Part shown: positions 40,789 through 63,144 of the stretch, one piece after another | How the letters are laid out: each line of letters starts with the position of its first letter | Numbering within the stretch: position 1 is the first letter of the stretch | Virus record (IMG/VR): IMGVR_UViG_3300030372_002896 | Location: 1,129-65,128 of that record | Direction: 5' to 3' (one strand) | DNA length: 64,000 bases | From: a virus | Taxonomy: Duplodnaviria > Caudoviricetes | Program-made: the position numbers and the translations under genes | The notes under the pieces: model-generated | Seen by the model: only the letters and a program-made list of their open reading frames with translations | Databases searched by the model: none | Told to the model about the DNA's origin: nothing

Positions 40789-41151
40789 ACCCCTGCCGAA
40801 AGGATGCCGGTATATCAATACTCGTCGGATTTGTAACCATTTTCGACCCTTCCGGGACGTTTTTGGGTCCGCCGTGGTTTTTGTAACCACGGCACGAAAT
40901 CGCATGACTCACGTAGGCGTAACAATTCAGCCCAAAATATCATGGTTACAAAAACACGCCGGGCAACTGGTTACAAAAACATATGGTTACAAAAAGAGAG
41001 AAAGAGAGAGAAAAGAGAGATGGTTACAAAAACAGGGATAGAGAGAGATGGTTACAAAAACAGGGATAGAGAGAAAGATGGTTACAAAACCACAGAGAGA
41101 GATGGTTACAAAATCAGGGATAGAGATGGTTACAAAAAGATGGTTACAAAA

Positions 41152-41361
41152 TCAAGATACCTCATACAAGTCAAGTGAAATGACCGAGAAGCCTTTCGCA
41201 AGGAACTCAATAGCGTGACCCCAAAGGACTTCCTCATAATCTGCATAATATTCGTGCATCTCTCTTCGTGCGCCCTTGACGTTCTGTCGAACGAGGATAT
41301 GAGCGCAGTAAGCAAAATCTTCCTCGCTGCTGCGCCACTCAACATGATTAGTCCACTTCAT
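41152..41361 (-). CDS. Hypothetical 69-aa acidic protein
   Basis: Coupled to the upstream ORF; stop immediately followed by TTTTGTAACC on the sense strand. Confidence 0.65.
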   Translation of the reverse strand: MKWTNHVEWRSSEEDFAYCAHILVRQNVKGARREMHEYYADYEEVLWGHAIEFLAKGFSVISLDLYEVS

Positions 41362-41549
41362 GCTACCATCTCCGCTGTGTAGTTCGCTTCACGGGCCATG
41401 TCGAACAGTTCCCACATTGTAGAATCGGACACAGGACTAATCCTGACAGGGTTGCTGTCACCTTCTTTGAAGGTTACAAAACCAGTGCCGAAACACAATT
41501 TCATCGTTCGCTTCATTTGTTCATTCCTCACAATCGCTTCAAGAGCCAT
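41358..41549 (-). CDS. Hypothetical 63-aa protein
   Basis: Leaderless, TATA-like box 21 nt upstream. Confidence 0.65.
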   Translation of the reverse strand: MALEAIVRNEQMKRTMKLCFGTGFVTFKEGDSNPVRISPVSDSTMWELFDMAREANYTAEMVA

Positions 41550-41570
41550 GTTACTCGGAGAAGGTGTCCC

Positions 41571-41590
41571 TACTTAAGGCTGTCGATTTC
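41571..41590 (-). promoter_or_regulatory. Left-arm promoter, TCGACAG + TATA class
   Basis: AAATCGACAGCCTTAAGTA; the same TCGACAG-TATA arrangement occurs at 43414-43432 and 44805-44823. Confidence 0.7.
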
Positions 41591-41701
41591 TAACTTGGTT
41601 ACAAAAACAATTGGTTTTGTAACCGTAGGAATAACAATCGTGGTTACAAAAACAAAGAGAGAAATTTGGTTACAAAAAGATGGTTACAAAAAGATGGTTA
41701 C

Positions 41702-41882
41702 AAAAAGGAGTTTCCCCCCCGGCGGCTTTTCTCGTTGTCTTATGCAAGCCTTAGACGTTCGCTTTTACCTTCGGGGGGTGGGACTCTGATTCGCTGCTTC
41801 TTACTGACTGTTCTTCCGACGCCTCTATCGCTCGCTTGCTCTGAGTGTTGCGCCGGTGGTCGTGCCTTCCTCTTCCTCCACT
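41702..41882 (-). ncRNA. Candidate small non-coding transcript
   Basis: TTATATA box at 41905-41911, no ATG at the expected position, ends in GGGG-GAAA-CTCC hairpin plus T5. Only an 18-codon GTG ORF is available. Confidence 0.35.
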
Positions 41883-42050
41883 AATCTAAAGGAGCGACTG
41901 GAGGTATATAATTGTTTTGAATTAGCGTTTTTGTAACCACCCACTTTTTGTAACCGCGACTTTGGTATTGACATGGTTACAAAACCATTTATTTTTGTAA
42001 CCACCTATTTGTTGTAATTGTTTTTGTAACTAATTTTTGGTTACAAAATC

Positions 42051-42158
42051 TCAATCATCAAACTCCGCGCACATTTCTTCAATTGACAAACATTCGATGC
42101 TGCAAAACTTCTCGCTCCAATTCTTAGGTAACTTACAATCGCACACTAAACAATTCAT
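42051..42158 (-). CDS. 35-aa zinc-binding microprotein
   Basis: GAGGTGA SD; MNCLVCDCKLPKNWSEKFCSIEC. Not in the ORF track. Confidence 0.6.
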   Translation of the reverse strand: MNCLVCDCKLPKNWSEKFCSIECLSIEEMCAEFDD

Positions 42159-42167
42159 GTCATCACC

Positions 42168-42449
42168 TCAATACCACTCTGGCTCCTGTGGGTCAAGGTC
42201 GCCGCCGATAATCTCAAAATGCCTGTTCTCGGCCATCTGCATGTGCCTGTCAAGTGCCGCGTCTGCTGCCTTCTCCATTGCGTCAATCCGTTCGTCTTCC
42301 TTGATTTGCTCAGGGGTGCGGTTAGCCAATCGTTCCTTCTCTGCCTTCATCTCTTCGTCAATTCGGGCATTCTCTAAGGCTATGTGTGTTGTTTCCTCTG
42401 CCCATAATACGAAGGCCTGAGCCTTAACGTGCATGTCGTGTTGTTCCAT
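42168..42449 (-). CDS. Hypothetical acidic helical protein
   Basis: Leaderless, TTATATG 22 nt upstream. Confidence 0.7.
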   Translation of the reverse strand: MEQHDMHVKAQAFVLWAEETTHIALENARIDEEMKAEKERLANRTPEQIKEDERIDAMEKAADAALDRHMQMAENRHFEIIGGDLDPQEPEWY

Positions 42450-42665
42450 AACCCTACGTAGTTGGGTTAGGCATATAATTGTTTGGATTGAGGGGTTTGG
42501 TTACAAAACCATTTGTTTTTGTAACTTTTAGTGTTTTTTTACAATATTTATTGTGGTTACAAAAACATTTATTTTTGTAACTTTTAGTTGGTTACAAAAA
42601 AAGATGGTTACAAAACCAAAAGTAGTTACAAAACGAGAGGTGGTTACAAAACCAAAAGTGGTTAC

Positions 42666-42712
42666 AAAAAAAAGTCCGACCTCCCCAACTGACCCGGAAG
42701 TCAGCAGGGAGG
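42666..42712 (-). terminator. Hairpin plus T8 terminator
   Basis: CCTCCC/GGGAGG and CTGAC/GTCAG stems, followed on the minus strand by GTCGGAC-TTTTTTTT. Confidence 0.7.
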
Positions 42713-42748
42713 GCGAGGGATGTTTCAGGGTGGTTACAAAACCACTGT

Positions 42749-42943
42749 TCAAAGTGTCTTGATTAGGTCGCGGACTTGACGTGGAGTAGCATCGGGGTTC
42801 TCTTCAAGAACGATTGCTCGCTTCTCGTGGAACTCATCAAGTGATGCCTGTGTCGCCTTCATCTTAGGGGTCAGGTTAGCAACAAATTGTGCTGTTGCAT
42901 ACTTGCCCTTAACATAGGTCCGATTAGGATTCTTAGTAGCCAG
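42749..42943 (-). CDS. 64-aa protein with CTG start
   Basis: TATA box at 42985-42991, GGAGGTGA-AAAT-CTG, then (M)ATKNPNRTYVKGKY...RDLIKTL*. Not in the ORF track. Confidence 0.65.
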   Translation of the reverse strand: MATKNPNRTYVKGKYATAQFVANLTPKMKATQASLDEFHEKRAIVLEENPDATPRQVRDLIKTL

Positions 42944-43161
42944 ATTTTCACCTCCTATTACAAATTAAGGGAGTGCGCCTCACCATATAAATGTTTGGAA
43001 TGTAATTGGTTACAAAAACAATATGCGCGATAACTTTGGTTACAAAAACAAAAGTGGTTACAAAAAGGGTTCGACCCCAACCGCTCTTTGGTTACAAAAA
43101 GCGGCGGGGTCGGGGGTATATCAGGGCCGTCATTCGGCAGTATTATCTGGTTACAAAACGC

Positions 43162-43392
43162 TCAAAGTTGATTGCTCAGAAGAAGCCACGCGCGGTAAAG
43201 GTGGACAAAAGCCTCCTCGTCGTCGTTCTTTGGCTTGTCGATGTCGAGGGTGGAGTCAACCAACTTGTAGTCGTCCTCCATCTCTTCCATCGCCCCTTCA
43301 ATCTCCACAAGGATAGAGGTCAAGGCGTCAGCCTTGGCATTCTTCTCCTCGCGGGTCTTTCGTTCGTTCTGTATGGTCGTTAGGTCGTCCAT
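43162..43392 (-). CDS. Hypothetical acidic 76-aa protein
   Basis: ATG 43392 is 22 nt after TTTATAT; the track's start lies inside the TATA box. Confidence 0.7.
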   Translation of the reverse strand: MDDLTTIQNERKTREEKNAKADALTSILVEIEGAMEEMEDDYKLVDSTLDIDKPKNDDEEAFVHLYRAWLLLSNQL

Positions 43393-43596
43393 ACCACCGT
43401 TACCGTTAGCCCCCATATAAACCTGTCGATTTACTACTTGGTTACAAAAACAATGGGCTGCTACGCATTGGATGGTTACAAAAACATGGTTACAAAAATA
43501 AACGCAGAGATTTGGTTACAAAAAGATAAAGAGAGATTTGGTTACAAAAAGACACAGAGAGATTTGGTTACAAAATCGTAACCATTGGTTACAAAA

Positions 43597-43788
43597 TCAG
43601 ATTTCTCCGAGATTGATAAGATACCCATTGAAACCCAACCAGTGGTTACAAAACTTCCACGGGGGCGAATCAACCTCATCTTCACATTGCCACATATAAT
43701 GGAACTCTTCGTCGTTGGTTACAAAACGGCTTGAAATTACAGCCCATTCCATATCGTGTAGCCTCAAGTCCGTGGTTACAAAACTCAT
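43597..43788 (-). CDS. Hypothetical 63-aa protein containing three motif copies
   Basis: FVT/FCN codons are TTTTGTAACC copies; ATGA-coupled to the upstream ORF. Confidence 0.55.
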   Translation of the reverse strand: MSFVTTDLRLHDMEWAVISSRFVTNDEEFHYMWQCEDEVDSPPWKFCNHWLGFNGYLINLGEI

Positions 43789-43961
43789 GCGACCATCTCC
43801 ATGATTTTGAGGTATTCGATAACGGCTTGATGAGCCTCGGCGTCATACCAATCTGGTCCGCCTATATCCTCAACTGCTTCTTTCAATGTTTCAATCTGGT
43901 CTTTGAGCGTCATCTCTGCGAAGTGCTTTCGGGTTGATGTTGCCAATGGGTCTTTGTCCAT
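43785..43961 (-). CDS. Hypothetical 58-aa protein
   Basis: MDKDPLATSTRKHFAEMTL...; TTTATAG 21 nt upstream. Not in the ORF track. Confidence 0.65.
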   Translation of the reverse strand: MDKDPLATSTRKHFAEMTLKDQIETLKEAVEDIGGPDWYDAEAHQAVIEYLKIMEMVA

Positions 43962-44162
43962 GAACCGAGATGTAGGCTCCGCCTATAAACATTTTGATTA
44001 AGTGGGTGGTTACAAAAACATGGTTACAAAAACAATAGGCGGTGTTTTTTATGGTTACAAAAACTGGTTACAAAACCACAGAGAGTTACAAAAAATCAGG
44101 GATGCATACTGGTTACAAAACCATAGAGAGTGGTTACAAAATCGTAACCACTGGTTACAAAA

Positions 44163-44327
44163 TCAAATGGTCCCGAGTTTCTGCTCCATCTCAACGAGGA
44201 TTCGGATACGACGAGCCGCCCACACGTTACCGGTCACAGCAAGCGGGACAAGTGCCTTAATCGCACGGCGGCGTTTGATGGACGCCATCTCAGTGTGGAC
44301 GCATACAATCTGGTTACAAAAAGTCAT
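44163..44327 (-). CDS. Hypothetical basic 54-aa protein
   Basis: ATGA-coupled; stop followed directly by TTTTGTAACC. Confidence 0.5.
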   Translation of the reverse strand: MTFCNQIVCVHTEMASIKRRRAIKALVPLAVTGNVWAARRIRILVEMEQKLGTI

Positions 44328-44782
44328 GCGCTCACCCTCTCGACACACTCGGAGCATACACACGCCTTGAAGTCACGGGACAACCATTCGACGCGGCGAG
44401 GGTCGGCGCGACCCTTGCAGCCACGGCAGACAGCCGAAGGGGCGTTCATGGGGATGAATTGAATCATCATTGAGTTCATGCGCTGCATACCGTCAAACAT
44501 GGCCTTACGTGCTGCTATGGCTGCCTTGCGTCGTCGTGTGGCTGCTGCCTTCTTTGCTGCTGCCCTGCGCTTCATTGTGCCGTCAGCGGTCGCAATTTGG
44601 GCCGCTCGTGCTGCCTTGGCGGTTGCTGATGTGAAGGAGTGCTTAGGGGCATCAACGACAGTCAAGCCCATGTCCTCAGCACATGCAGCACATCGAAAGC
44701 CGTCGTCGGTTGTGATACCGCGCCGGGTCTTCTTGCATGGGCTACACCACTTCGGGGTTGGTTCGCGTGTGTGGGTTGTCAT
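44324..44782 (-). CDS. Double zinc-finger protein with Ala/Lys/Arg-rich helix
   Basis: CSPC...CAAC, KRRAAAKKAAATRRRKAA, CRGC...CSEC; first gene of the left arm. Confidence 0.75.
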   Translation of the reverse strand: MTTHTREPTPKWCSPCKKTRRGITTDDGFRCAACAEDMGLTVVDAPKHSFTSATAKAARAAQIATADGTMKRRAAAKKAAATRRRKAAIAARKAMFDGMQRMNSMMIQFIPMNAPSAVCRGCKGRADPRRVEWLSRDFKACVCSECVERVSA

Positions 44783-45627
44783 AATAGGAGCAGGGAGGAC
44801 GCCCCTTATGAACCTGTCGAAATAATACGTTGTTGTGATATGGTTACAAAAACAAAATACCTTGGTGAGTGGTTACAAAAACAAAATGGCGGCGGCGGGG
44901 GGCTGACATGGGCGGCGACAGCATATATATGTTTCGTTACCATAATCTATATACGAAATCTTTATAAGCAAACGGCTGGCCGCTAGGTGGTTACAAAAAC
45001 GGCTGAAAGTGAACGAAAAAAACGGCTTGGTTACAAAAAAATTTGGTTACAAAAACGCACACTGGTCGCCATTTTTTCACTTTCAGGTTCACTTTCAGTT
45101 CACTTTCAGTTTTTTTTTCATATTTTTGATGCTTTTAGTATAGCCCCAAAGCAAAAAATATGCACGGTGGTTACAAAAACGTAGCGTGGTCGGCAACGTG
45201 GTTACAAAAATGTAACCGGGTTTTTGTAACCAAAAAAGACCCCTCAGAGTATAGAGGTTAAGAGAGAAAAATGCACAGAGGTTACAAAAACAAAGAGAGA
45301 AGAGAGAGTCGGTTACAAAACCGTAGCCGGGTTTTTGTAACCAAAGAGAAAGAGCATGGGTGATAGAAAGGGTAGGTCTTTTTGTAACCTCAGTATATCC
45401 GTGCGAAAAAACCCTCCGGGTGTGGTTACAAAAACCTCCTGTTTTTTATCGCCCACACGAAAAACCCCCGTTGGTTACAAAAACGCTTACTTGCGCGGAC
45501 GCATAGTAGATAATATCCCAGAAACCACCCACCCCGAAAATCTGCCCCGCTGGTTACAAAACCTTATTAAGCAGACCTTACGCTGCGCCAACAACACCTT
45601 TTAATAGTAGGACGATTATGTGTAACC
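44783..45627. other. Gene-free divergence centre (candidate origin or genome-end junction)
   Basis: No credible ORF; three direct TTCACTTTCAG copies (45076, 45088, 45099), one inverted copy (45003), an adjacent T-rich stretch and mixed-orientation GGTTACAAAA. Confidence 0.55.
45575..45607 (+). promoter_or_regulatory. ACCTTACGNTGCGCC-N9-TATA promoter, first of 11 copies
   Basis: Copies start at 45575, 46357 (one base shorter, degenerate TATA), 47161, 48018, 48442, 48712, 49941, 52160, 53155, 56205 and 63092, all on the + strand. Confidence 0.92.
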
Positions 45628-45804
45628 ATGAACACTAAGAACAACACGAACGCAGAATGCTATTCATGCGGCGAATATTACCACGAAACAACCCCGATTA
45701 AACGCTTGACTCTCACATCCCCCTGCTCCTTTAGATGCAAGGCTTGTTGGGCCAAGTTCGCCGCCAACGGCTATGATGATTCACAGGAGCGTGATTGGGA
45801 ATGA
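45628..45804 (+). CDS. 58-aa zinc-finger microprotein
   Basis: CYSC...CKAC; leaderless after the promoter at 45575. Not in the ORF track. Confidence 0.65.
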   Translation: MNTKNNTNAECYSCGEYYHETTPIKRLTLTSPCSFRCKACWAKFAANGYDDSQERDWE

Positions 45805-46408
45805 CTGGTGTTGAATGGCCCGATTACATCGTTCATGTGTTGAACCGAAACGCTGAACCCTCTTTCAGAAACGACGGCATGAAACATACCCGTTGGAATT
45901 GCCCCCACTGGTGGGTCCACACAGAGAACGAAGAGGGGATTGCATTATTCGCCTGTAACCAATGCGGATGTGCCTCACATTATCCCGACCACGATTTAGT
46001 TCACGAAGCAATTCAAGAACTTCAAGACGCACTGGACCGTATGAGAGGTGTGAAACAATGAAGTTCCACGGAGAGTTCGGACGGGCTGTTTTCTCTGATA
46101 CCGTCAAAGACCCCGCGTGGGATGGTGACGAATGGAGAGTTAATTTTTACTCGGTGAATCCTTTAACCGGAGAGATATTCATTCAGGGGTTGGATATGCA
46201 ATTCTTCGCAAGACCACTTCGACCGATTAGGAGAGTGATTCAATGATTGATGACCTCTGCCCCGGCAATCCTTCAAAGTGCCGCTGCTCTTTTTGTAACC
46301 AAATCAAGAGAGAGGTGGGCGCGTGATTTTTGTAACCATGATAATGTTTCTCAGAAACTTACGCTGCGCCACCAAAACCGTCATATCCGATGACGACGAG
46401 GTGGTAAT

Positions 46409-46864: not shown

Positions 46865-48068
46865 CTTTTTGTAACCACTCAACCCCGTTTTAGGTTGTTG
46901 TTCATACCGGGGTGGTCGCTGATTCGGGGCGGCGGCCATCCCACTTTTTGTAACCACATTTTTTTTCGTGCGATTTGTTTTTGTAACCGCGCCGCCCGCG
47001 CCCGCCGCGCCCAGAGAGAGTGGTTACAAAAACCGAGGACCGCAGCGGCAAAAAAAATACGGCTACCTTTGGTTACAAAAACAAAAAACCTAAGTTGTTA
47101 AAAACCGCAACTCCCACAGGAGTTAGAGATTTTAACAAGTAAGAAATGGTTACAAAAATAACCTTACGTTGCGCCATAACAACCTTTAAATAGAATGACT
47201 CTGATGTCTATTTAATGGAAAACAAACACGCAACCCCCCCTGATACGTTTAAATGGCTTGAATGTCCTGATTGGGCAATCGAAGGATTTCGTAAGATTGA
47301 AGCGAAAGGATTCATCATAGGCGACTTTGATTATATCGCCAAGAATCATTGGACCTGTCGAGCATGGCCTATCGAAAAGGATGATGAGTTTGAAACTTGG
47401 GACGAAGCCACACTCTGGGAAGTCGAACTTCAAGGCTGGGATGACCCTCGCTTGACCGAAACTGTTCATGTAGGGGAATGGTGATTCAATGAGAGCGATA
47501 ACACGAGATGCAGGTCAAGCAATACACAACCGACAACCCTTCAAGAGAGGGAATACTACGGTCGAGGTGAATGGACGGAGTGCCAAAATGCGGCTTCACG
47601 GTCATGCCATCGCGGAGTTCGTTCATACTGGAAAGATTCACTACGATTGGAACGGTCCATATTATGAAGATTATCACTATTCGATAGATTCATGCGGATA
47701 TATGACCCACACGACAAAGGAACGCCTGAACGGTATTCCCGGCATTCAAGTGGTTCAACGCAAGGGCGTTTGGTATCTGAACGGCATAGAATGGGACGGC
47801 TCCCGCGTTTCTGTTTATCGCAACACCACCCACGATTTTTATCATCCATACATACTATACGGGAGGCTGGACGAATGATTGAGTTCACATTTCCCACCCG
47901 CGACCACGCGGAGAAGTTCACACGGTATCAAGACCAGAAACACGGCGTCAGTCATCGGTGGACTATCAAGAAGACCGGCGGAAACCGATGGGTTGCAGCG
48001 CGACCAGCGCGAACATGACCTTACGCTGCGCCATAAAAACATTTAAATAGATTGAACAATTATTTCAA

Positions 48069-48330: not shown

Positions 48331-51300
48331 GCTCGGTTTGTTTTTGTAACCGTTGCTAAGGTGCGCGATTCGGCAAGTCCGGTTTGGTTACAAAAACTTC
48401 TAATCCGCTGGAATCACCAACTCCGGTTTGGTTACAAAAAAACCTTACGCTGCGCCATAGAAAGGTTTAAATAGTTATGCGAGTATGGTAATTTGTAAGC
48501 GAGGAAGCAACATGACAACTGAAATAACACGAACAAACAATTCAGACATAAACGAATTGACTGGAAACCATAACGAAGCACTCGTGCGATGCATGGCTGA
48601 TTGGATTCAACACGCATACGAGGCGATTCAAAAAGGCGACTACTCAGACGCGGCTACGTGTGTTCGTATTGCATCCACCTTTGAACAGCAAGTCCACATT
48701 GCGGAGGACTGACCTTACGGTGCGCCAACGAAAGGTATAAATAGGATAGCGAGAATGTTAAATTACAAGCGAGGAAGCAACATGGACAGACCAACACACG
48801 AAGAACACACATACCACGACGGAAGCGTCGAGCGAGTAACGCTTGAATACGCGGTAGTCAGGAATGACAAATTGAATCAACTACTATGGAAGATTCAGGA
48901 CGACTGGAACAGGCAAACGCGGGAGTTCGGACCCAAGTGGGCCGACCCCGGTAAGCCGACAGTAATGGAACTGGCTGATGCTATTGACGACCTGAGTATG
49001 TTCATCAATGAACTATCAGATGACGTTCATGAACTATGCATCCAACATACCTATGAAGTGGCTGAGAGCGATGCAATCGAGGTGAAGACATGATTACAAT
49101 CACACCACTTGAGTTCCAATTCCTCAAAGACATGGTATTTTCAGACCATTCGACGGACGGTCACGGCATATGTATGTGGGTGACTGCTGGTTATTCCACA
49201 CTACGTCCCAAAGTGTGGAGGGGTGTCGTTTCATCACTGATGCAGAAAGGTATCATAGGCTATTCAGAAGCCGACCCCGGATACAGATGGCAATGGGATT
49301 ATGAAAATGATACATGGGATGATGCCGCTATGGACTTCAATGACCGCAGGCTGCTTCAACCCGCATGGGTCCAAATACGTGAAGAATATCAAAAGGACCG
49401 ATACAACGACGAGACAATCAAAGATTGGGAGATTGACAATGATGACCTTGACGACCTCAATGATAATTTCAGAAAGGCTTGCATCAAGTGGACAGGCTAT
49501 GAACTAATCAACTTGGAGGTGAAAGCATGACATATGTGACTACAAACAACGGACCATATGTCTTTGATGTGCGGCTCATCAATCACCATAAGAATCTTGA
49601 CATTCCTCTCATGAGAGTGCATTCTATCGGTGAACTGTTCGATACACTTCCCGACACTCTGCCGCTTCATCGTTGGACTACGGACGAAGAAACCAGAACC
49701 GGCAAGAATGGCAAGGTAATACAGAAGCAACTCGGTCCTGAGTGTCTGCTTGATTTCATCAGTATTTGTAAGTTCAAATCTGGATGGGAAGGAATCCATC
49801 TTTATGTGAACAGTCAGCCTGACGTTCGCGCTTATATCTACATCAGTCCGGTGGGCAGGTCATGGAATCGCCTCACCGATTCAAGCGGTTCACTACGGGC
49901 CGTGGCATACGCTGATTGGGCAGTAGGGGAGGAAGAGTGAACCTTACGCTGCGCCGTAGGAATACTTATATACTTTGGAGAACAACACTAAATTACAGGA
50001 GACAGAGAGACATGACACACATCACAAACGACACACCAATATGGTCCGCTCTTGGGCGAACCCGCCGAGGCGACGAGCCGCACTACTCGCGGATTATTAT
50101 CGCCACGAGCGAAGAACGACTTTACGCTAAGGCGAAGTTCTTCGGGTTGAGGATTGAAACTCACACGATTGACCACTACTCATCAGCGTCCGACATGACG
50201 GACGAAGGAGATGAAGCCCTATGGGAAATGCAGGAGGAATCACAATGAGTAGACACATCAGCATTCCCTACTCGATGCTACTCGCTCTTAAAAACCAAAT
50301 CAAGGAGTTACAGGCTGCAATCGCCAAGCGTGACAGCATGGTCGAAGACATGAACACGGCTACGGTTGAGTTCATTGACGCATACTGCGGCATGGAAGAT
50401 TATCTACTACACAATGAAGAGGTGGAAGCATGAACGGATGGAGAAATCGCGCCACATGGCTCGTGAACGTATGGTTCAATCCTGAAACCAAATCAGACAT
50501 AGATTACCTTGAGGAAACGCTCCAAGACGAGTTTGAGGATTACATCAAAGGGACACACTATTCAGGATTTTTCAGCGACCTTATTGACTTCACAGATATT
50601 GATTGGGACGAACTACGCGAAGCAATGGAAGACGAGGTGGAAGCATGATGAAGATTGGCTACAAACAGGAAACTGAGATTATCCTACGAATGCTCGCAGC
50701 GCGAGGTATCAAGTTCGATGGTGGTCACTACGCCTACGACCGTTCAGAATACGCATGGGAGTCGTGCGATTTCCCGACCTTCAAAGAACATACCCACAGG
50801 CTATGGAACGTCGAGGACTCTATACTCTATGTCCACTATCAGGGCGTGAACAGATGGGTTCGATTCACCTACGGTAACTCCTTCGGAGAACTACCCTCGG
50901 ATTGGTCTTGCACAAAATACGGCACAGAACCAGAGCCGATTGATGTGATACTGGAAGATGTTCTCATGAACTACTCGGACCGCGTGTTCAAGTTCTTCGA
51001 CCTCGTGCCGAAGGAAGATTCACCACTACTTTTTGTAACCACGGAGGAAGAGTGAATGAACGAACCATACCACAGATACCCAGACGAAGCCGGACAGACC
51101 ATCACTGAGCATTGGGTCCGAGTGGCTGAGAAGTGTTCCCGAACCTATGCGGTCAAGGGAGCCAAATCTATGAAGGAAGCCATCGAGTTCATCGAAGAAC
51201 ACGGCACTTACGAAGAGATAGAAGTCGAAGAAGGCAGAACTATCAAGGTCACGGAAATTGACGGTTGGCATGAATGGGAACACACTTTCAAGCCTCAAGC

Positions 51301-52651
51301 AGTAGATACCGTCAAGGCTCGGACCTGTGTTTTCCTCGGACGGGTTTTCAAAGCACCAAGCGATACGGAGCGTGGCTCTCGGTTTGGCTATCACAATAGG
51401 CACTACTGCTACGATACGTTCGTATCACTGAATAACCCGACAGGAATCTGTGACGAATGCACAGAATGTCTTGAGATGGGATGGACACTCCAACCAAAGG
51501 AGGTGGAAGCATGAAGAAGTTCATTTACAGAAAGGTCAAGGTGTTTGAACACACCTTTGAGGCATGGTCTAAGGAACACGCCGAGCAGATGCTTGAAGAC
51601 GGTTATCTCATTCTCCATGACTACGAGATGGATTGCGTCAAGGACGAAGAACAGATTGTAAAGCAAAGGAAGGTGGCTTGAATGGGTTGGGGAACTACAA
51701 TTAAGATTGGGACTTTCAACCGACATGAATCATGTCCAGCGGATAATTACATCCTTGACCACATCGAGGATATGTTTGATTTCAAAGCGATGTATGAGGC
51801 GGCAGCAAAATACTTTTCTATGTTCGCAGATGATAATAGTCGTCACCCTGACGATTGGGTTCATTTCATACTCTATCCATCAGGTCTTACTCAAGGGACC
51901 ATAGCAGTATTGGATGCTTTCAAAACAGTGTTAGGTGAAACCGTATTTCCTCTTTCAGTCCATATTTGGAATCGAGAGACAGAGCAATACGAAGTGCAAA
52001 CGTGGGGTGCTAACTTATGAGAACTCACACCTACATCTGCCCGTTTTGTAACCAACATCACGCACGAACATCACTTCTACTATATCCTAACATTAGGATT
52101 TGCTACACACACGACGTAAAGTTCGATGTAGAGGTATATCAGATTAAGGAGGATGTGTGACCTTACGGTGCGCCAACACAACAATTATATACTTTGAAAA
52201 GAATGGTAAATTACAGGAGAGAGAGACATGGCAATTAAGATGAGATGTGAATGTTGCTTCAACAAGTTCGATGCAACGAGCAAAGAACAAACGCAACCGG
52301 ATGATGATGGTTATGTATTATGTCTTCAATGTCAGTTGTCACCAGAATCCGCTACGGATGCCGCGATACTTGCCATCGCTCCCTACGTTGGAGTCAAGGT
52401 AAATCACACTGATTACACTAAGGGTTATCACAAGGCATGGAAGGCATTCTCTTTACAACTACGACGCATCAAGGCAGAGAGAGGTGACGAGCAATGACTC
52501 TCCCACCTCACCCTGAAATACTCCGCGAGTGTCCGAGAGGATGTCTTTGCTGGAAGAACAGAAACGGTAAGGTCATGGCAAGCCGAGATGAGCAAATCAA
52601 GTGCGGCTGTGCCTACATAGACATTCAAGGTAATTTCAGGAGGTTTGACGA

Positions 52652-53155
52652 ATGAATATCTTTTATCTTGACCGCTCGCCTATCGAGGCAGCAAAGATGC
52701 ACTGTGATAAGCATGTGCCTAAGATGATTGTCGAGTGTTATCAGATGATGGGTTCATCTGTCATCCGTCATGGTGCTACGCCTGACATGATGCCGCTCAC
52801 CAAAAAACAGACCCCGCTCAAAGGTGGCTACCACAATCATCCCGCCAGCCGTTGGACGGGAGAATCACGGACTAATTATCTCTATGTATCTTACATGGCA
52901 GGAATGTTGTGCGAAGAATACACCAAGCGTTTCGGTAAGAGACACTTCTGCGAAGATGGCATCGAACATCTGTTCGGTATGTCATCTATGATTCCCGACG
53001 GTCCTATGACTGCTCCGGCACAATGTATGCCAGATGAGTTCAAGGATGATGACCCGGTAGTCGCGTATCGCCGCTACTATCACAGCAAGACATTCGCCGC
53101 ATGGAACAAGAGCCGCGAGGCTCCCGCGTGGTGGAAAGGCGTGGAGGGAGCCTGA
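52652..53155 (+). CDS. Pyrimidine-dimer DNA glycosylase family (T4 endonuclease V-like) protein
   Basis: MNIFYLD...HCDKHVPKMIVE...HNHP...QCMPD...VAYRRYY...APAWW signature. Confidence 0.85.
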   Translation: MNIFYLDRSPIEAAKMHCDKHVPKMIVECYQMMGSSVIRHGATPDMMPLTKKQTPLKGGYHNHPASRWTGESRTNYLYVSYMAGMLCEEYTKRFGKRHFCEDGIEHLFGMSSMIPDGPMTAPAQCMPDEFKDDDPVVAYRRYYHSKTFAAWNKSREAPAWWKGVEGA

Positions 53156-53232
53156 CCTTACGCTGCGCCATAGGCACAGTTATATATGCGAAACCCGACG
53201 ACCAAATATACCAAACAGGAGACAAGACAAAC

Positions 53233-53811
53233 ATGGAAATACACACAACGATTGAGATTGACACAGACGAACTGGTGGAAGAGATTGCCAGTCAGATGAG
53301 CGATTTGATAGACGAGCGCATTGATGAGATGAGTATCAGCAGGGACGACTATAACCCTGATGAGTGGATTACTCGCTGCGAGATTGACCCGGACAACATC
53401 ATCACACATCATGACTTTGACCCGGACTGCTTAGTGACTGACGACAACGTGGATGACCACATCGAGGAATGGTTCAGCAACTACTTCGACCCGTCTGACC
53501 ACAACATCCTGACATCGGATGAGTTCGACCCCGATGACTATGATGTCCTGACACCGTATAACTTCTGCCCAGAAGACCACGACCTCATGACGAGTGATGC
53601 GGTCCACGAAATGATTCAACAAGAGACAGGTTCGGGACTCTCGGGCGAAGACATAGCCCACCGGCTCATCGGTGCTTTAGTCCACGAGCCTGATTTTGTA
53701 ACCACGCTACGGAAAATCCTTGGCATCAGCGACGGACCTGCCGGATGGATTCACATCGGCGGCAAGTGGTATCGTGAAGTCGAAGGCTCACCCGGAGGTG
53801 AAGTGGAATGA
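53233..53811 (+). CDS. Very acidic protein with internal FDPxD repeats
   Basis: About six 11-13-aa units (IDPDNIITHHD, FDPDCLVTDDN, FDPSDHNILTSDE, FDPDDYDVLTPYN, FCPEDHDLMTSD). Confidence 0.75.
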   Translation: MEIHTTIEIDTDELVEEIASQMSDLIDERIDEMSISRDDYNPDEWITRCEIDPDNIITHHDFDPDCLVTDDNVDDHIEEWFSNYFDPSDHNILTSDEFDPDDYDVLTPYNFCPEDHDLMTSDAVHEMIQQETGSGLSGEDIAHRLIGALVHEPDFVTTLRKILGISDGPAGWIHIGGKWYREVEGSPGGEVE

Positions 53812-54383
53812 CTCTCTATCTTGAAAAGGATGGGTCTGGCCTATGTTGGGACACGGTTATGCACTTTATGGGCTACGGCACAAACAAGTGGGAAAACCTA
53901 CAAATTGTTCGCTACATGGTAGACGAAGGTTACAGTCGAGAGACAATGACCGCTCTCTTTGAAGATGCGTGTGACCGTTGGTCTATGGGAGATGATACCC
54001 AAGACATCCTTGCGTGGCTACGTGACCCCGACTACGTTTTCTCCGAAGACAGTTCCTTTAGCAACGATACTGATTACAGTTTTATGTTTCCCGACTCAGG
54101 GAGTGATGAGGAATGAAGTCAGGACACTCGCACCGATACTGGACGAAGTTCAAGGCTCGCCGCAAGCACTACAAAGAGGGACTATACCTCAAGAAGAAGG
54201 GCGGTGAAGAGGAATGAATGCTCTACGCTTTGAAGTGCAGGAATGCAGCGGACAGACCAACGGACACTGGCAGACCGTGATGGAATGCCCGACGTTGGTT
54301 CAGGCTCAGATGACTCTCAACAACCTACGGGTAGTATCAATTATGCAGCGTGACTGTGACTTCCGAATCATCGAGGTGATGGC

Positions 54384-55244
54384 ATGAATAAGACAGAATT
54401 ACTCGGCACTCAGGTCGAAGGCCGCACTGTCGTTAGACGCGGCGCAAATGACACCAGCATCCCAATGGTGGGAGCGAAGAAAGTCAAGCGGCATGGAGGC
54501 TCCGCAGACCGCCTATCAAGGGGTGTGGTGATGACAATCAAGAGATACCTCGCTCAACAGTATCAGGAAAACCATGAGAACTTCGGTATGTATGGGCCTG
54601 ATGACTATCCGTTTCAGCAAGAATATAACTCGTTGCCGTCAAAAGGCGCGATGGGCTATCTCATAAACGCTCTCAACGCCGTCACTAAGAAGTTGAAGGC
54701 TTGGGACTTCGTGGCTCGCGCTAATGAGGTTCAAACCAGACACATTGGGTGTAATGAAAACGCTGAACTATTCATCTATTCTAACATGAGTGGAGGGACG
54801 ATATACCGCACAGTATATGTTCAGTCCACGAACAGAGGGGCATTCAAGATAGGCCCATCGACCAAGAGAGCAGGACCGATTTCAATTACTAATAGGTGGT
54901 CATGGGGTTCGCAACATGAACACCTATCATCTGAAATGGTGGAGTGCCTACCTTCTGACTGGACGGATTGGGTTAATGCAGCATTCGACCGCTCCGAAGC
55001 CCACTACGGCGACCATGAGCGTGTGAAGAAGATTGGTCAATACGAGCGTGAAATCACATCTATCGTTGAATCGTATATACCGAGAGTTCAGAAGGAATTA
55101 GACCAGTGGAACGACCCTGAATGGGTCGCAAGCCTCGTAGCACAGCGAGTGGAGAAATACAGTAATGAAATCAAGCAACATGAGGACCGGCTCAAGACCA
55201 TCAAAGATTACCTAATCGAATTGAAGGGTGGTGAAGAGGAATGA
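54384..55244 (+). CDS. Hypothetical protein with C-terminal coiled coil
   Basis: 286-aa ORF coupled to its neighbours. Confidence 0.7.
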   Translation: MNKTELLGTQVEGRTVVRRGANDTSIPMVGAKKVKRHGGSADRLSRGVVMTIKRYLAQQYQENHENFGMYGPDDYPFQQEYNSLPSKGAMGYLINALNAVTKKLKAWDFVARANEVQTRHIGCNENAELFIYSNMSGGTIYRTVYVQSTNRGAFKIGPSTKRAGPISITNRWSWGSQHEHLSSEMVECLPSDWTDWVNAAFDRSEAHYGDHERVKKIGQYEREITSIVESYIPRVQKELDQWNDPEWVASLVAQRVEKYSNEIKQHEDRLKTIKDYLIELKGGEEE

Positions 55245-55747
55245 AGGATTGCCGCGCAACCTGTGACATCTGCAAGGAAGGGAACATGATGACCATGATT
55301 TTCGGAAAGAACTACGTCTGCGAGTATTGTATCCGCACCATCGTCCTACACTACATCGAAGAGGTGCTACCATGATGAAGCCATTTAGAATACTAACTGA
55401 CGACCGCGAGATTTGTGTCAAGCCCAACAAGTGGCTCGTCCCTATTGAGGGCGTTGATTACCCTGTCGTGACCTTCACGGTATGTTTTCATGACTACGAC
55501 GAAACCCTTATTAGCGAAAGCGTAGTCCCAGATTTGTCCGCGCTCTGGCAACTTGTCACGGCGGAACTCGTTGGGGGTGAAGAGGAATGACTGGCGTAGA
55601 AGCCTTATCACAGTGCATCTTTGCTGCGTATCAAACACTCCATGATTTGGCTGATGCTTACGCCGAAGGAGATGAAGAGAGGGTCGAAATCCTACTCTAC
55701 GAAATCTACTGCGATTACCACATTTCTTACATTAAGGAGGTGCAACA

Positions 55748-56014
55748 ATGAAGTTCGCTGAGAAGGTTGCTGCAACACTGGCTGGCATCGGCAAGATGCT
55801 AATCAAGAAGAATGAGCAATACGGTGACAGCGCACACCGTCCTGTTCGCATGTTCTCAAAGTTAGACCCACAGGCTGGAATCCGAGTTCGGATTGACGAT
55901 AAGTTATCCCGCCTCGCTCGTGGCAACGACAGCATCGAGAGTGACATTGACATTGTTGATGACCTCATCGGCTATCTCGTCATACTCAAAATCATGATGG
56001 AGGCAGAGGAATGA
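55748..56014 (+). CDS. DUF1599 / nucleotide-modification-associated domain 1 protein
   Basis: KKNEQYGDS...GIRVRIDDKLSRL...DIVDDLIGYLVIL. Confidence 0.8.
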   Translation: MKFAEKVAATLAGIGKMLIKKNEQYGDSAHRPVRMFSKLDPQAGIRVRIDDKLSRLARGNDSIESDIDIVDDLIGYLVILKIMMEAEE

Positions 56015-56275
56015 GCGCACAGGATTACTTTCCCCATGAAATCTTCCCAGCGATGGAAGACGAATGTGACCACCCGGAGGAATCTCAAGACCTTCGGACA
56101 GTCACCGTTACACTCCATTCAAACAACGACCCGGAGGGTGAGGATGTTCAGCGGGACATTATCATCTGCACCGATTGTGGTCAGGTGTTGAGGGTTATCA
56201 ACTGACCTTACGCTGCGCTATAAGCAGGTTTAAATAGTTGAAAAACAATGGTAATTTATAGGAGAAGTGATACAC

Positions 56276-56575
56276 ATGCAACAGAGAAAGAGGATGCACA
56301 TGAGAGCGAGAAGGGCTATCCTTCTAACTCTCCGTATGAGCGAAGAGACAATGACTGCTAACCAATTGGTAGCACGAATGATAGACCTACAATGCGACGG
56401 TGTTTTGGCTCGCAACTTCGGTATGCCAACACCACGCGCCATCGGTAACATGATGAAGGGTTGGAAGGGTATCAGGAACGAATACGTTTATCCGCACGGC
56501 GCAAGGTCGAAGATTCTATCATACGAGTTGGAGGACTTGGATGCAGCCGAGGGATGGCTACGAGGTGATGCCTGA
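56276..56575 (+). CDS. Winged-helix-like protein
   Basis: MTANQLVARM...PTPRAIGNMM; first gene after the promoter at 56205. Confidence 0.55.
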   Translation: MQQRKRMHMRARRAILLTLRMSEETMTANQLVARMIDLQCDGVLARNFGMPTPRAIGNMMKGWKGIRNEYVYPHGARSKILSYELEDLDAAEGWLRGDA

Positions 56576-56890
56576 TGGGTTGGGAGATGTGGTTCAAGAG
56601 TGGCAATGGTTACAGCGCACGTATGGGGTTCTTTTGTAACACCAGCGATAAATCATTTGGCCCCGTTTTCTACGTAGGTTCTGGATGGGATGAGGGTGAA
56701 GCCATCTCCGCGTTCCATCGGAAGTGGGCGTCAGAAGGATGGATGGACCCGCGAGCCATGGATAACTCAACACTATCGGATGCAGCATATGGTATATCAG
56801 AATGGATGGAAAAGGAGCGTGGCGAGGAATGAAGATGACGGATTTACTAAAGATGAGCGTCGAGCAACTGCAAGAAATCGAGGCTGAACT

Positions 56891-57820
56891 ATGGCACGAG
56901 TGGAGTATGGTTCGTGCGGCTATCAAGGTCGTGAAGAAATTGGGGGAAGAGAAATGAGTGACCTCGTTCCTATCGTGTGTGACAAGCGAGAAATCGAGGT
57001 CCGCCACTTCACAACAGGTCGAGTTGGTAGCCTTAGACGCTGCGACCTTCTCATCGTCATAAACGGCGAAGAGTATCGGATGTTTGACAGCAGAACGGTC
57101 TTCGATTTTGTAGCCACTCTTTGCGACCCTACACCTCCCCCATACCGTAAAGATGTGTATGATGCCATGTATTCTATGGAGGAACCGTTCTCGTGTGTGC
57201 TTCGTGACCTAATCGAAGAGACAACCGCTGGACTGATGACCTTATGGGTTCGCATCGAGAAAGACCCGATTAGGGTCCGACAGGTGGAAAGTATAGGCGT
57301 GGAAGTGATGGACGATTACCTATGGATGCAGGGTCTTATCGCATCTATCCGAGAGCGCGGCCACATGGCTTCCGTCACTACTACATTATTTCCTCTTAGA
57401 AAGGAAGAGTCAATATCCAACAGGATATGTATCGAGGTGAATACGAAACAGCATTCTCAAATAATCATATCACAGAGGAAAGGTCGGCTTGCATTCACCA
57501 CACGATGTCCAGTGAACTGTGACATGCGGCATCAATTGGATGGGTTGTTCGTTCAACCTATTGACACCATCTGGTTAGATGGCACGTTTGGCTCTGTTGA
57601 TGCTACTGTATTCATGGACACATTCATCAAGTGTGAGGATGCAGCGATTCTTGGTGATGTGTTAATACACACGATTACACAGAGGGAAAGGATGGAGAAA
57701 TCACGACAAGCATATAGTTCCCGGCGACTCAAAATCTCCGACCTGTTCACCATCGAGCGCATGGATGCTCAGGATGCAATTAATTATTTCCAATTATTCG
57801 GAGGTGACTCAGAAGAATAA
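56891..57820 (+). CDS. Hypothetical 309-aa protein
   Basis: Long ORF with no motif I recognise. Confidence 0.7.
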   Translation: MARVEYGSCGYQGREEIGGREMSDLVPIVCDKREIEVRHFTTGRVGSLRRCDLLIVINGEEYRMFDSRTVFDFVATLCDPTPPPYRKDVYDAMYSMEEPFSCVLRDLIEETTAGLMTLWVRIEKDPIRVRQVESIGVEVMDDYLWMQGLIASIRERGHMASVTTTLFPLRKEESISNRICIEVNTKQHSQIIISQRKGRLAFTTRCPVNCDMRHQLDGLFVQPIDTIWLDGTFGSVDATVFMDTFIKCEDAAILGDVLIHTITQRERMEKSRQAYSSRRLKISDLFTIERMDAQDAINYFQLFGGDSEE

Positions 57821-57987
57821 TCGGGGCGCAGCCTACCGATTGTCGTAATTCTTTTTTTACTTCAAAGGTATGTTAGAGTAGTTACCTACTATTTCTAAAC
57901 CATCTATGAAGGAATAAAACAAATAACGGATTGAGGGAGCAGCACAACGATTTATTGATTCTGTATTATTTTTGGGGGCAAAAAGAA

Positions 57988-58428
57988 ATGACGCAACGAC
58001 GAAAACCACGAAGCGAATCAGGTCGCAAGGTCAAACACTCAAGATTGAAGAGGGCTGTATGGCAGTTCTTGACTGATGAAGGCGAGCATAACACTTTCGA
58101 CATAGCACACCATCTCAAAGATGTGGGTCAGTCGTTCAGCCGCCATCAACTAACTCAGGTTCTCAATAAGAATCCAAATATGTTCATCAAGATAGGCAGG
58201 GAAACTCTCAAGCGTCCGGTCATTGGGCCGGGAGGGGCAGACCCTACGACCTATGGTCATGGAGGCGGAACTCCTACGCGCTTGGTCAATATCTATCGAG
58301 CGGCTACCATTGAGGAAATGGCAGAACGATTCATCAAATACGACAACCCAATATCAGGCTACAACCAACTACCAAAGTTCCTCGGAGACAAAATCCGCAA
58401 CTTCATTAACGCACAGGAGAGTGATTAA
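57988..58428 (+). CDS. Winged-helix-like protein
   Basis: LKRAVWQFLTDEGEHNTFDIAHHL...FSRHQLTQVLNKNPNMFIKIG. Confidence 0.6.
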   Translation: MTQRRKPRSESGRKVKHSRLKRAVWQFLTDEGEHNTFDIAHHLKDVGQSFSRHQLTQVLNKNPNMFIKIGRETLKRPVIGPGGADPTTYGHGGGTPTRLVNIYRAATIEEMAERFIKYDNPISGYNQLPKFLGDKIRNFINAQESD

Positions 58429-58430
58429 TT

Positions 58431-59225
58431 ATGACGCGCCGTTTCGACACCACCACTTACCAAGATATTGATGTTCTGTGGGCAGATGGTTTTGTAACCG
58501 ACTCGTCTATTACTGCTATTGTGTTCATGCAGAACGAGCCGGGTTTCGCTACGTTCCTCGCAACTATGGGTGTAGTGGGCGACGAAGAACCCGTGGCTCG
58601 TATCTACTCCAAGTTACTCGCCATCGAACCACAGAACGCAATCCCTGAGATTGCAGAGCCGTGTTTGTTCCTCTATCAGATAGACGACCACATTATCCTA
58701 CGTCTTGTGAATCTCATGCCCCCTTCTCATCAGATGGACCTAACTAACTACCTGTGGCATTATCCTCTTGCTCGTGATTTGGCTTGCCTTCTCTATGATA
58801 TTGGTATCAACAAATTGTTCACTATGACTTCGGTTGGGGTCGAGGGAACGCCACTTGAGGGCGACGGTAATCCATACATCGCATATGATTTTCAAAAGAA
58901 GGATGTCATTGGCTCCCTCGGCGGCGGAGAGTTGGCTTTGACAACTCCTTCGTGGTTGGTGGGAGAGATGTTCGCTAAGATTGGTGGTGGTGAAGTAGGC
59001 TCAATCCTTATGTTGATGAAGGCAGAAAACATCATGGGTGTAGATGAACAGGCTGTCCAATACGCTTTGGACTTCTATCATCAATCCTTCGGCCTCACTC
59101 CCGATTTAGATTCAATGAATGAAATCCGTTCTATCCTTAACTCAATTGACGAAGAGGGATTCTTTGTCAATCCGTTTGATGAGGACGAGTTCGATGAGAA
59201 TAACAGTGGAGGGTATCACGCATGA
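58431..59225 (+). CDS. PAC2-family (proteasome assembly chaperone-like) protein
   Basis: EPVARIYSKLL, GINKLFTMTSVG and DEQAVQYALDFYHQSFGLTPDLDSM resemble the PAC2 pattern; recognised by eye only. Confidence 0.5.
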   Translation: MTRRFDTTTYQDIDVLWADGFVTDSSITAIVFMQNEPGFATFLATMGVVGDEEPVARIYSKLLAIEPQNAIPEIAEPCLFLYQIDDHIILRLVNLMPPSHQMDLTNYLWHYPLARDLACLLYDIGINKLFTMTSVGVEGTPLEGDGNPYIAYDFQKKDVIGSLGGGELALTTPSWLVGEMFAKIGGGEVGSILMLMKAENIMGVDEQAVQYALDFYHQSFGLTPDLDSMNEIRSILNSIDEEGFFVNPFDEDEFDENNSGGYHA

Positions 59226-60813: not shown

Positions 60814-60940
60814 GAGCGAAGTGTGCGAAATGTAAGATTGTAGACAAGGTTGTCGTGTCGAAATGGCTTGGTGACGGCCCATATTATAGTTTTGAACAAA
60901 AGTATTACTGTTCACATGAATGTTGTGAGGCTGATGAAGA

Positions 60941-63092: not shown

Positions 63093-63144
63093 CCTTACGC
63101 TGCGCCACCGTCAAGTTTATATTCCTTCGCACCAACGTAGTAAT

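Follow-up and report, generated by a model that had tools for sequence, protein, structure and literature searches.

What role would a ten-nucleotide word play that a virus carries in 82 exact copies, most of them packed into one part of its genome? The question is raised by a stretch of 64,000 nucleotides of DNA, the whole of which we analysed and which we call the window: it comprises nearly all of the 65-kb linear IMG/VR virus record IMGVR_UViG_3300030372_002896 (positions 1,129 to 65,128 of that record), from a marine tailed virus of the Caudoviricetes. The word is GGTTACAAAA, and an exact scan places it 64 times on the forward and 18 times on the reverse strand, from 40879 to 58490-58499. 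The reading that we favour, with about even confidence and on the strength of sequence comparison, is that the words are operator/stoperator-like sites for a virus-encoded protein, here named fam7, and that they control and punctuate early transcription. If so, this looks like an undescribed system of virus-encoded gene control.

An exact, asymmetric word in one region

The scan agrees with an initial annotation of this DNA, both in the 64 forward and 18 reverse copies and in finding none before 40.8 kb (zero exact sites in 1-40878). Chance is a poor explanation for such a density: dinucleotide shuffles give an expectation of 0.16 sites, with a maximum of two. All sites together span 17.6 kb, 78 of the 82 fall inside 7.6 kb, and about 70 are intergenic, adjacent to stop codons and TATA boxes. 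The exactness of the copies is unusual, in that one-mismatch versions number only 12 in the whole window (6 of those in the array region) versus 82 exact ones. Flanking positions extend the word to T-GGTTACAAAA-[A/C]-[C/g] (T-GGTTACAAAA-MS). We call a site T-first if it reads TTTTGTAACC on the sense strand of the local gene, and A-first in the opposite case; the sense-strand run of T is T5 or longer in 56 of the 82 sites and T4 in the remainder. Spacing from site to site is irregular, and helical phasing is weak (R 0.2, p ~0.04-0.1).

The initial annotation had raised the possibility that the arrays are an assembly artefact. They are not, because independent assemblies (Logan, ENA, IMG/VR) reproduce them: the arrays were recovered in Logan contigs of five SRA runs and in one ENA assembly, four shorter Logan contigs keep the same site-to-site spacing, and more than 10 IMG/VR contigs of other samples also have arrays. 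The arrays also account for the tendency of these viruses' assemblies to break in this region. Cumulative GC skew along the window, which the initial annotation proposed as a check, has no turning point at 45.6 kb, the centre of the region. A search of 40-50 kb for tRNAs and Rfam families returned neither, and a literature search for the word retrieved papers that contain it solely within primers. Paired words were also sought in host-genome contigs, where the matches listed were only single chance matches or unrelated tandem repeats and are uninformative on hosts.

Sites track genes after stops and hold one orientation at promoters

The words lie in and between two divergent arms of genes, separated by a gene-free centre of 845 bp (44783-45627) that has its own cluster of sites, including two inverted pairs (45200/45222 and 45311/45333):

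44842..45561, no strand assigned: gene-free central control region between the divergent arms; 15 sites (12 forward, 3 reverse)

The left arm, transcribed from the minus strand between 45.6 and 40.8 kb, consists of roughly eight small transcription units in succession. Each comprises a TATA box, an ATG ~25 nt further on, and one or two short open reading frames (ORFs), frequently joined by an ATGA overlap; the stop codon, usually TGA, is fused to the first TTTT(T)GTAACC or at most 3 nt from it, and an array of 5-9 sites with CT-rich spacers then follows. In six of the eight units, the last site stands 16-20 nt ahead of the next promoter, composed of a transcription factor B recognition element (BRE) and TATA box. 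The left-arm features are these:

40829..40888, reverse: exact site 40879 and one-mismatch site 40829, both GGTTACAAA(A/T) on the minus strand, just upstream of a TATA-like box (~40810-40817) of the gene for a 378/417-aa protein (39652-40788/40905)
40944..41151, forward: array A1, 9 exact sites in forward orientation only; spacers are CT-rich on the sense (minus) strand, and the array follows the stop codon 41152-41154 without a gap
41597..41705, forward: array A2, 6 sites (+ - + + + +), flanked on one side by a ~170-nt unit lacking any clear ORF and on the other by the promoter (~41571-41578) that serves genes 41358-41549 and 41152-41361
41929..42048, no strand assigned: array A3, 5 sites (- - + - +); its start is 2 nt beyond the stop codon of a zinc-ribbon ORF of 36 codons (42050-42159), and its end is 17 nt ahead of a TATA box (~41905-41912)
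42499..42741, forward: array A4, 7 exact sites and 3 AGTTACAAAA variants; contains a GC-rich hairpin followed by T8 running into a site
43008..43158, forward: array A5, 5 sites, of which 43090 is in the loop of a 13-bp inverted repeat, CGACCCCGCCGCT / AGCGGTTGGGGTCG (43085-43125, minus strand)
43440..43596, forward: array A6, 7 sites; abuts the stop 43597-43599, with its last site 18 nt from the TATA box 43416-43422
44008..44162, forward: array A7, 7 sites; abuts the stop 44163-44165, with its last site 18 nt from a TATA box at ~43983-43990
41472..44321, forward: single sites within ORFs at 41472, 43644, 43717, 43774 and 44312, all T-first on the sense strand; 43774 and 44312 fall within codons 2-5 of ORFs whose start codon overlaps a stop as ATGA

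The start at 40788 of the 378/417-aa gene is deduced from a conserved GATATACCGGCATCCTT promoter that the window has in common with its relative G001 (see below).

Right-arm genes are read from the plus strand, and their sites are fewer:

46291..46337, reverse: two sites, TTTTGTAACC on the sense (plus) strand, lying 45 and 82 nt beyond the stop at 46246, with the promoter of gene 46409-46864 downstream of them
46867..47157, no strand assigned: intergenic module; T-first 46867, 46946 and 46979 after the stop at 46864, then A-first 47022, 47071 and 47148, the last of these 4 nt ahead of the promoter element CCTTACGTTGCGCCA
48342..48439, no strand assigned: intergenic module; T-first 48342 after a hairpin and T7, then A-first 48386 and 48430, the last of these 3 nt ahead of the CCTTACGCTGCGCCA promoter element
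51031..58499, reverse: single sites 51031, 52044, 53694 and 58490, all T-first on the sense strand; 51031, 52044 and 58490 lie within ~60 nt of a gene boundary

Set against local gene direction, 69 of the 82 sites are T-first, and these include every stop-proximal and every in-gene site; orientation tracks transcription in the same manner in the relatives G001, L254 and L268. The nine in-gene copies all read TTTTGTAACC on the sense strand, as had been reported, and post-stop sites read TTTTGTA... on that strand in both arms without exception. What departs from the gene-following orientation are promoter-proximal sites of the right arm: its five forward sites (47022, 47071, 47148, 48386 and 48430) are each just upstream of a promoter, and its reverse sites are shortly after stop codons or within genes. 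Stop-proximal and in-gene sites, then, track gene direction, and promoter-proximal sites hold one orientation genome-wide. In the right arm, the order within a gap is stop, T-first sites, A-first sites, promoter, both in the window and in the related loci L254 (of the CCC word class described below) and L268 (GCC). These observations uphold the initial annotation's view of a directional cis-acting system and qualify two of its particulars. The orientation was said to flip across the centre: sites are indeed mostly reverse on the right (5 forward and 10 reverse beyond 46.2 kb, versus 59 and 8 left of 45.6 kb), but the flip is not a clean one, since only the stop-proximal and in-gene sites follow gene direction. 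Of the four stop codons said to be followed directly by the word, those at 41152, 43597 and 44163 abut it, but the stop at 46862-46864 is 2 nt away.

Relatives keep the architecture and change the word

The initial annotation had looked to relatives for a recurrence of motif and polarity, and both are there. A search with the large terminase, TerL, retrieved 80 related loci, 28 of which reach at least 4 kb past the terminase gene; in 24 of these 28, one 10-mer recurs 10 to 78 times beyond TerL, and its A-rich reading is mainly on the terminase strand in all 24 array-bearing loci. G001, whose terminase is 83% identical to that of the window, has 89 word sites and the same TGA+word junctions, at non-homologous genes. 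More distant relatives, G002 (complete, 71.7 kb), G003 and G004, have core proteins only 30-65% identical and a G+C content of 37-39%, within the 36-40% of such distant word-sharing relatives, versus 47.5% in the window. They keep the exact 10-mer with other flanks, in 12-16 sites that are confined to one gene-free region of 0.85-1.1 kb between divergent arms, to which the central region of the window corresponds. Because G002-G004 have sites solely there, the central cluster is probably the ancestral state, from which the arm arrays would have arisen by expansion.

Furthermore, the word varies by lineage. The classes that we distinguish are GGT (GGTTACAAAA), CCC (CCCTACAAAA), GCC/GAC (the GCC word being GCCTACAAAA) and AAC-TACAAAA, together with AACTACATAACA (55 copies), AACGGCCAAAA, AAAATCCAAATC and others. 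In L317 the A/T-run is interrupted in all 55 copies of the word, and the left-arm architecture is unchanged. At one orthologous site, with flanks ~86% identical, CCC viruses read TTTTGTAGGG and a GCC virus reads TTTTGTAGGC; at a second, only one of the two classes retains an intact word, that of the other having decayed. Between CCC and GCC DNA, identity falls from 92% to nothing immediately past the terminase gene, returns at 68% over fam7, and is 86-90% beyond it.

Close relatives (88-93% nucleotide identity) differ by whole small genes, and these differences end exactly at word sites (window 41138-41357 and 42001-43586). L014 (4075-4090) is without gene 41152-41357, the gap falling exactly between ATGA and word; L098 (10195-10959) differs from the window between 42001 and 43586, and both of these points are inside arrays. 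A junction, GGAGATGGTCGCATGAGTTTTGTAACC, at window 43800-43774 is reused in L014 with different DNA behind it. The arrays thus also mark places of early-gene exchange between strains.

A zinc-ribbon protein as candidate reader

The word is probably read by a protein, as the initial annotation supposed: the dialects co-vary with fam7. When all ORFs of the loci were clustered, fam7 was the one early-region family found across word classes, and we consider it, from sequence, the most likely candidate reader. It adjoins the arrays at the control region in 20 of 20 carrier loci, which represent at least six word classes; in the window it is the first gene of the left arm, beside the control region:

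44324..44782, reverse: fam7, 152-aa candidate reader, comprising a long basic helix and Cys4 zinc ribbons at the N and C termini

Members of the family have invariant Cys pairs (zinc ribbons or knuckles) and basic segments, and most have CCHC-like knuckles; no catalytic histidine is conserved among them. In L256 (CCC class) the gene occupies 15096-15674, and in L268 (GCC class) 11259-11837. The AlphaFold model (predicted local distance difference test score, pLDDT, 70) has a long helix and a confident C-terminal ribbon. What singles the protein out is its behaviour between the CCC and GCC/GAC classes:

Terminase: 95-99% identity between the classes, 94-99% within a class
Exonuclease: 93-99% between, 94-99% within
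Right-arm gene fam13: 93% between, 93% within (GCC class only)
fam7: 58-60% between, 85-96% within

Viruses with near-identical terminase and exonuclease, which probably share a host, use different words, and the reader is therefore more plausibly virus-encoded than a host translocase. This bears on the Chi/KOPS-like signal that the initial annotation had listed among its options, and we set that option aside: the sites are packed into intergenic gaps within ~8 kb and are not spread along replichores, there is no GC-skew switch, and the words differ between viruses at 95-99% identity of terminase and exonuclease. The viral winged-helix proteins that it put forward as binders were likewise not borne out, since neither Pfam nor PHROGs detects any in the region; nor did these databases reveal a helix-turn-helix (HTH) or repressor family among early-region ORFs.

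Two other proteins were considered as the reader and rejected. The 417-aa gene beside the largest array is present only in GGT-class loci, has no family match and has no clear homologue in G002 or G003. A 444-aa protein resembling superfamily 3 (SF3) helicases (59222-60556) is 70-76% identical in every word class, which does not befit a specificity partner.

A proposed operator and stoperator-like mechanism

A virus-encoded, sequence-specific reader is favoured because the word is exact and asymmetric, because its dialects occur among near-identical viruses, and because they co-vary with one viral protein. A role in transcription is favoured because of the fixed distance to promoters, the placement after stops, and a T-run directed toward the arriving polymerase. 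A plain oligo-T signal is disfavoured because the 55 copies of one lineage have an interrupted A/T-run within the same architecture. From the anatomy, polarity, family-wide conservation, dialects and protein co-variation described above, we infer binding, its effect on RNA polymerase and its timing, along the following lines. The ancestral state would have been an operator region of 12-16 sites in the gene-free stretch between divergent arms; in the window virus and its nearest kin, the sites would have spread through all the gaps separating the small, individually promoted genes of one arm. One protein molecule might occupy each asymmetric site, and the intergenic DNA would thereby be coated. 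Initiation would be controlled from the promoter-proximal sites, whose distance upstream is 16-20 nt from TATA in the left arm and 3-4 nt from a CCTTACG element in the right. Post-stop sites would meet the arriving RNA polymerase TTTT(T) side first and act as polar roadblocks, which could convert a weak oligo-T pause to termination, in a way resembling mycobacteriophage stoperators. The outcome would be a coordinated shut-off, or insulation, of early gene cassettes.

Several points weigh against this proposal. Promoters and gene strands were read by eye, the strands resting on TATA-to-ATG spacing, ATGA overlaps and conservation (a codon log-likelihood test for the coding strand gave no discrimination), and an automated table of site orientation versus gene at all loci was confounded by long spurious antisense ORFs in the arrays. 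The fam7 model is of moderate quality at pLDDT 70, and the protein is unmatched in Pfam, Foldseek and a PDB profile search, so that nucleic-acid binding is suggested only by its zinc ribbons and charge. G002-G004 share the GGT word, yet no clear fam7 was identified in them: the best match is a 160-aa protein adjacent to the control region (E 0.04), and their reader would be either a highly divergent fam7 or another protein. Even between the window and G001-type viruses, again with the same word, fam7 is only 36-41% identical. Two small families, fam24 and fam25, also differ between classes (with one CCC-class member each), and because one word class has an entirely different left arm from the other, some of the co-variation between word and fam7 is attributable to module swapping. 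Finally, five sites within one 146-codon gene of G001, and arrays of up to 10 sites per gap, go beyond any known operator or stoperator layout.

Alternative explanations

Might the word instead be read in single strands? A co-transcriptional signal, recognised in the transcript (UUUUGUAACC) or on the non-template strand by a viral zinc-knuckle protein, would serve to flag 3' ends or processing sites, or act in mRNA stability or (anti)termination, with RfaH/ops and T4 RegB as parallels. Strand polarity relative to genes is the hallmark of such signals, and all in-gene and stop-proximal sites here are T-first on the sense strand; CCHC-like knuckles, present in most fam7 members, often bind single strands; one site is in a hairpin loop, and some site pairs form hairpins. 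On the other hand, the promoter-proximal A-first sites of the right arm would be outside the sense transcript, the right-arm T-first sites follow a hairpin and T7-T8 that should already end transcription, and the ancestral cluster is in a gene-free divergent promoter region with both orientations present. We regard an RNA signal as unlikely, and give the same low weight to replication-origin iterons or partition (centromere-like) sites, for which the zinc-ribbon protein would be an adaptor and the arm arrays a secondary spread. Every family member does have a cluster in the gene-free inter-arm region, along with other repeats and A/T-rich stretches; the irregular spacing recalls some centromere arrays, and co-variation of site and binding protein, as seen here, is typical of iteron systems. 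Yet it is fam7 and not the SF3-helicase-like protein that co-varies with the word, the latter being 70-76% identical across classes; GC skew is without a turning point at 45.6 kb; and an origin predicts neither the ~65 sites outside the centre, nor their stop and promoter placement, nor an orientation flip after right-arm genes.

Somewhat less probable still is punctuation that needs no dedicated factor: weak oligo-T terminators or insulators, placed in tandem and acting on the host RNA polymerase, with concerted evolution (slippage, unequal crossing-over) and not a reader protein keeping the copies of a genome identical. Oligo-T is a termination signal for archaeal polymerases, tandem terminators are common, the sense strand has T5 or more in 56 of 82 sites and T4 otherwise, and sites begin at stop codons with pyrimidine-rich spacers. 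Such a model leaves it unexplained that the non-T half is kept exactly in relatives with 30-65% identical core proteins while flanks change, that near-identical viruses have different word classes, that up to five sites lie inside one gene, and that A-first sites stand at a fixed distance from right-arm promoters, and the interrupted T-run in all 55 copies of one lineage is contrary to it. An archaeal intrinsic oligo-T terminator in its simplest form was rejected on similar grounds, position and T4-T5 fitting it but the invariant GTAACC, the lineage variants and those 55 copies not; the initial annotation's view that the word is more than a U-tract terminator stands. Least probable of all, and quite improbable as the primary function, are recombination sites, at which words would mark borders for the exchange of early cassettes by the virus's recombination proteins or a dedicated enzyme. 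Here one may cite the differences from L014 and L098 that end at sites, the recurrence of GGAGATGGTCGCATGAGTTTTGTAACC in L014 with different following DNA, a left arm almost wholly different between relatives, and the encoded AAA_24 ATPase, PD-(D/E)XK, Mre11-like and ERCC4 nucleases. Against this, Pfam scans of 50 ORFs, a subset of all ORFs, detected no integrase or recombinase, fam7 is without a conserved catalytic histidine, exchange at any abundant repeat is an expected by-product, and promoter-linked spacing is left unexplained, as are the unexpanded relatives that have control-region sites only. Cassette exchange at the words is at least a real side effect. Integron-like attC arrays were also rejected: no recombinase was detected in the ORFs scanned, and the words are asymmetric, 10-13 bp long and arrayed, although cassette indels do end at them.

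Comparison with known systems

The closest parallel to operator/stoperator-like sites read by fam7 is found in Cluster A mycobacteriophages (L5 gp71 and the TipsytheTRex repressor; PMC9283540, PMC6550527), whose operators and stoperators are likewise asymmetric multi-copy sites of ~13 bp. L5-type repressors recognise asymmetric 13-mers located at promoters and within short intergenic stretches; the orientation of these sites follows transcription and is needed for function (PMC9283540). The window words occupy the same kinds of position, their orientation also correlates with transcription in both arms, and Cluster A subgroups, too, each have a site dialect that co-evolves with the repressor. 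The differences are considerable: the window virus has no homologue of the repressor with its HTH and stoperator domains, its candidate reader being a zinc-ribbon protein; the words come in arrays of 5-15 per gap (82-89 per genome) in one region, whereas Cluster A sites are single; no integrase, among 50 ORFs scanned with Pfam, and no lysogeny module is seen, while carriage without integration is conceivable; and the probable host is an archaeon, whose RNA polymerase would be Pol II-like. We therefore describe the resemblance to stoperators as one of putative function, by analogy, and not as membership.

Among archaeal viruses, the F55 repressor of SSV1 (PMC5569661) provides a precedent for what we propose: depending on its concentration, it binds short direct repeats at the promoters of early genes and at its own promoter. 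F55 is, however, a ribbon-helix-helix dimer with one or two sites of two repeats per promoter, and neither post-stop arrays nor a polarity rule are reported for it (PMC5569661). The intergenic repeats of halovirus HF2 (PMC8707807) and the promoter early stem-loop (PeSL) cassettes of T4-type phages resemble the present arrays in that they separate small early genes, are conserved in position and are associated with cassette exchange. They differ in being 29-58 bp long, one per gap and with the promoter inside, whereas the window word is 10-13 bp, arrayed and apart from BRE/TATA.

In layout, the words are also reminiscent of RNA polymerase I (Pol I) terminators: the Sal-box/TTF-I arrays of mouse, and the yeast T-rich element with its Reb1/Nsi1 site. 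There, a T-rich non-template stretch immediately precedes a polar roadblock site, and ~10 copies follow the gene, with one more upstream of the next promoter. The likeness goes no further, as the Pol I system is eukaryotic and its binder is of the Myb type. The omega protein of plasmid pSM19035 binds heptad arrays of 7-10 short direct or inverted repeats upstream of several promoters, and lambda O binds iterons; short-repeat arrays upstream of promoters, and co-variation of site and binder, are thus common to these systems and the window words. Their functions are in plasmid copy number, partition and origins, and their sites are neither post-stop nor gene-oriented. Comparison with an iteron origin gives a mixed picture: all relatives have a central cluster, and arm arrays and gene-linked polarity would be unexpected of an origin.

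A more far-reaching version of the favoured reading is that abundant tailed viruses of marine archaea possess a polar system of transcription stops and operators that depends on a protein. It would be the archaeal equivalent of stoperators, with a new zinc-ribbon reader whose specificity switches between near-identical strains as in immunity groups. We put this forward as a doubtful possibility. Were it true, it would imply superinfection exclusion or a silent carrier state in seemingly lytic viruses, and would be a first case in archaea of oligo-T termination assisted by a roadblock. Little is known of how marine archaeal viruses regulate their genes, none having been cultured. The present locus offers a testable pair, a 10-13-bp word and a small zinc-ribbon protein, with the GGT, CCC, GCC/GAC and AAC variants as built-in controls. 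Should the pair bind, it would represent a new DNA-recognition fold, a handle on early-to-late switching and on termination by archaeal RNA polymerase, and evidence of immunity-like specificity groups in ocean archaeal viruses.

Promoters, repeats and candidate RNAs of the early region

The right-arm promoters are unlike those of the left arm and consist of CTTACGSTGCGCCA and TTTAAATAG. There are 12 copies of CTTACGSTGCGCCA with at most one mismatch, all on the forward strand, versus 0.01 expected by chance: 11 are distributed across 45577-63107, and one 1-mismatch copy is at 5224. At the copies inspected (45577, 46358, 47163, 48020, 48444, 48714 and 52162), a TATA-like box (TTTAAATAG and variants) follows ~9-10 nt after CTTACGSTGCGCCA; the element seems to define a separate class of promoter serving the entire right arm.

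Two units, 48060-48340 (plus strand) and 41710-41890 (minus strand), are promoter-driven, lack a convincing ORF and contain GC-rich hairpins; the former ends in a hairpin and T7, the latter in G7 and three word sites. We consider both to be candidate small non-coding RNAs, with no Rfam match.

In the control region, TTCACTTTCAG is repeated three times in tandem at 45003-45118 and followed by T9, with an inverted copy upstream; the element is also in the control region of G001 (~8500-8540 of G001). This repeat may be an origin or another operator. The palindrome GGTGTAAAAACTACACC and variants of it occur beside word sites in the control regions of several relatives (L091 7990-8620, which is G002, and L254 6590-7010). 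In L268 (12392-12500) and L256 (16400-16520), representing the GCC and CCC classes, respectively, two CCCTACAATTTTGTAGGG palindromes flank the same ~60-nt stretch, and a tRNA-like 3' half (GCGAGTTCGATTCTCGG) is found ~50 nt past the second palindrome. The CCCTACAATTTTGTAGGG palindromes stay in the CCC form even in the GCC-class genome.

Genome context and host

Genes of the window are those of a tailed virus: portal, tape measure, tail tube, large terminase (37877-39361), Mre11-like exonuclease and family-B polymerase (PolB), along with a PD-(D/E)XK nuclease, an AAA_24 ATPase and an XPF-type nuclease that joins ERCC4 and helix-hairpin-helix (HhH) domains. PolB is closest to that of haloarchaeal tailed viruses (23-26% identity), and TerL, compared with deposited phage genomes, has T4-like (cyanophage) matches at ~26%. 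Because TerL and PolB matches to deposited phages are only 23-28%, no named family can be assigned, and the label 'magrovirus' in the initial annotation stays unverified. BRE/TATA-like boxes, read by eye, stand ~25 nt before the ATG of small genes, a distance that implies leaderless mRNAs. These promoters, the ERCC4+HhH nuclease and the haloarchaeal affinity of PolB make it likely that the host is archaeal.

The virus has a recombination and repair set of its own at 1414-2361, 6394-7245, 8533-9255 and 36140-37606 (AAA_24 ATPase, PD-(D/E)XK, ERCC4+HhH and Mre11-like), and the short XPF-type ERCC4+HhH nuclease belongs to a family typical of archaea and eukaryotes. Adjoining the tape-measure gene is a single ORF of 2488 aa (9239-16705, minus strand), which relatives share at 37-69% identity.

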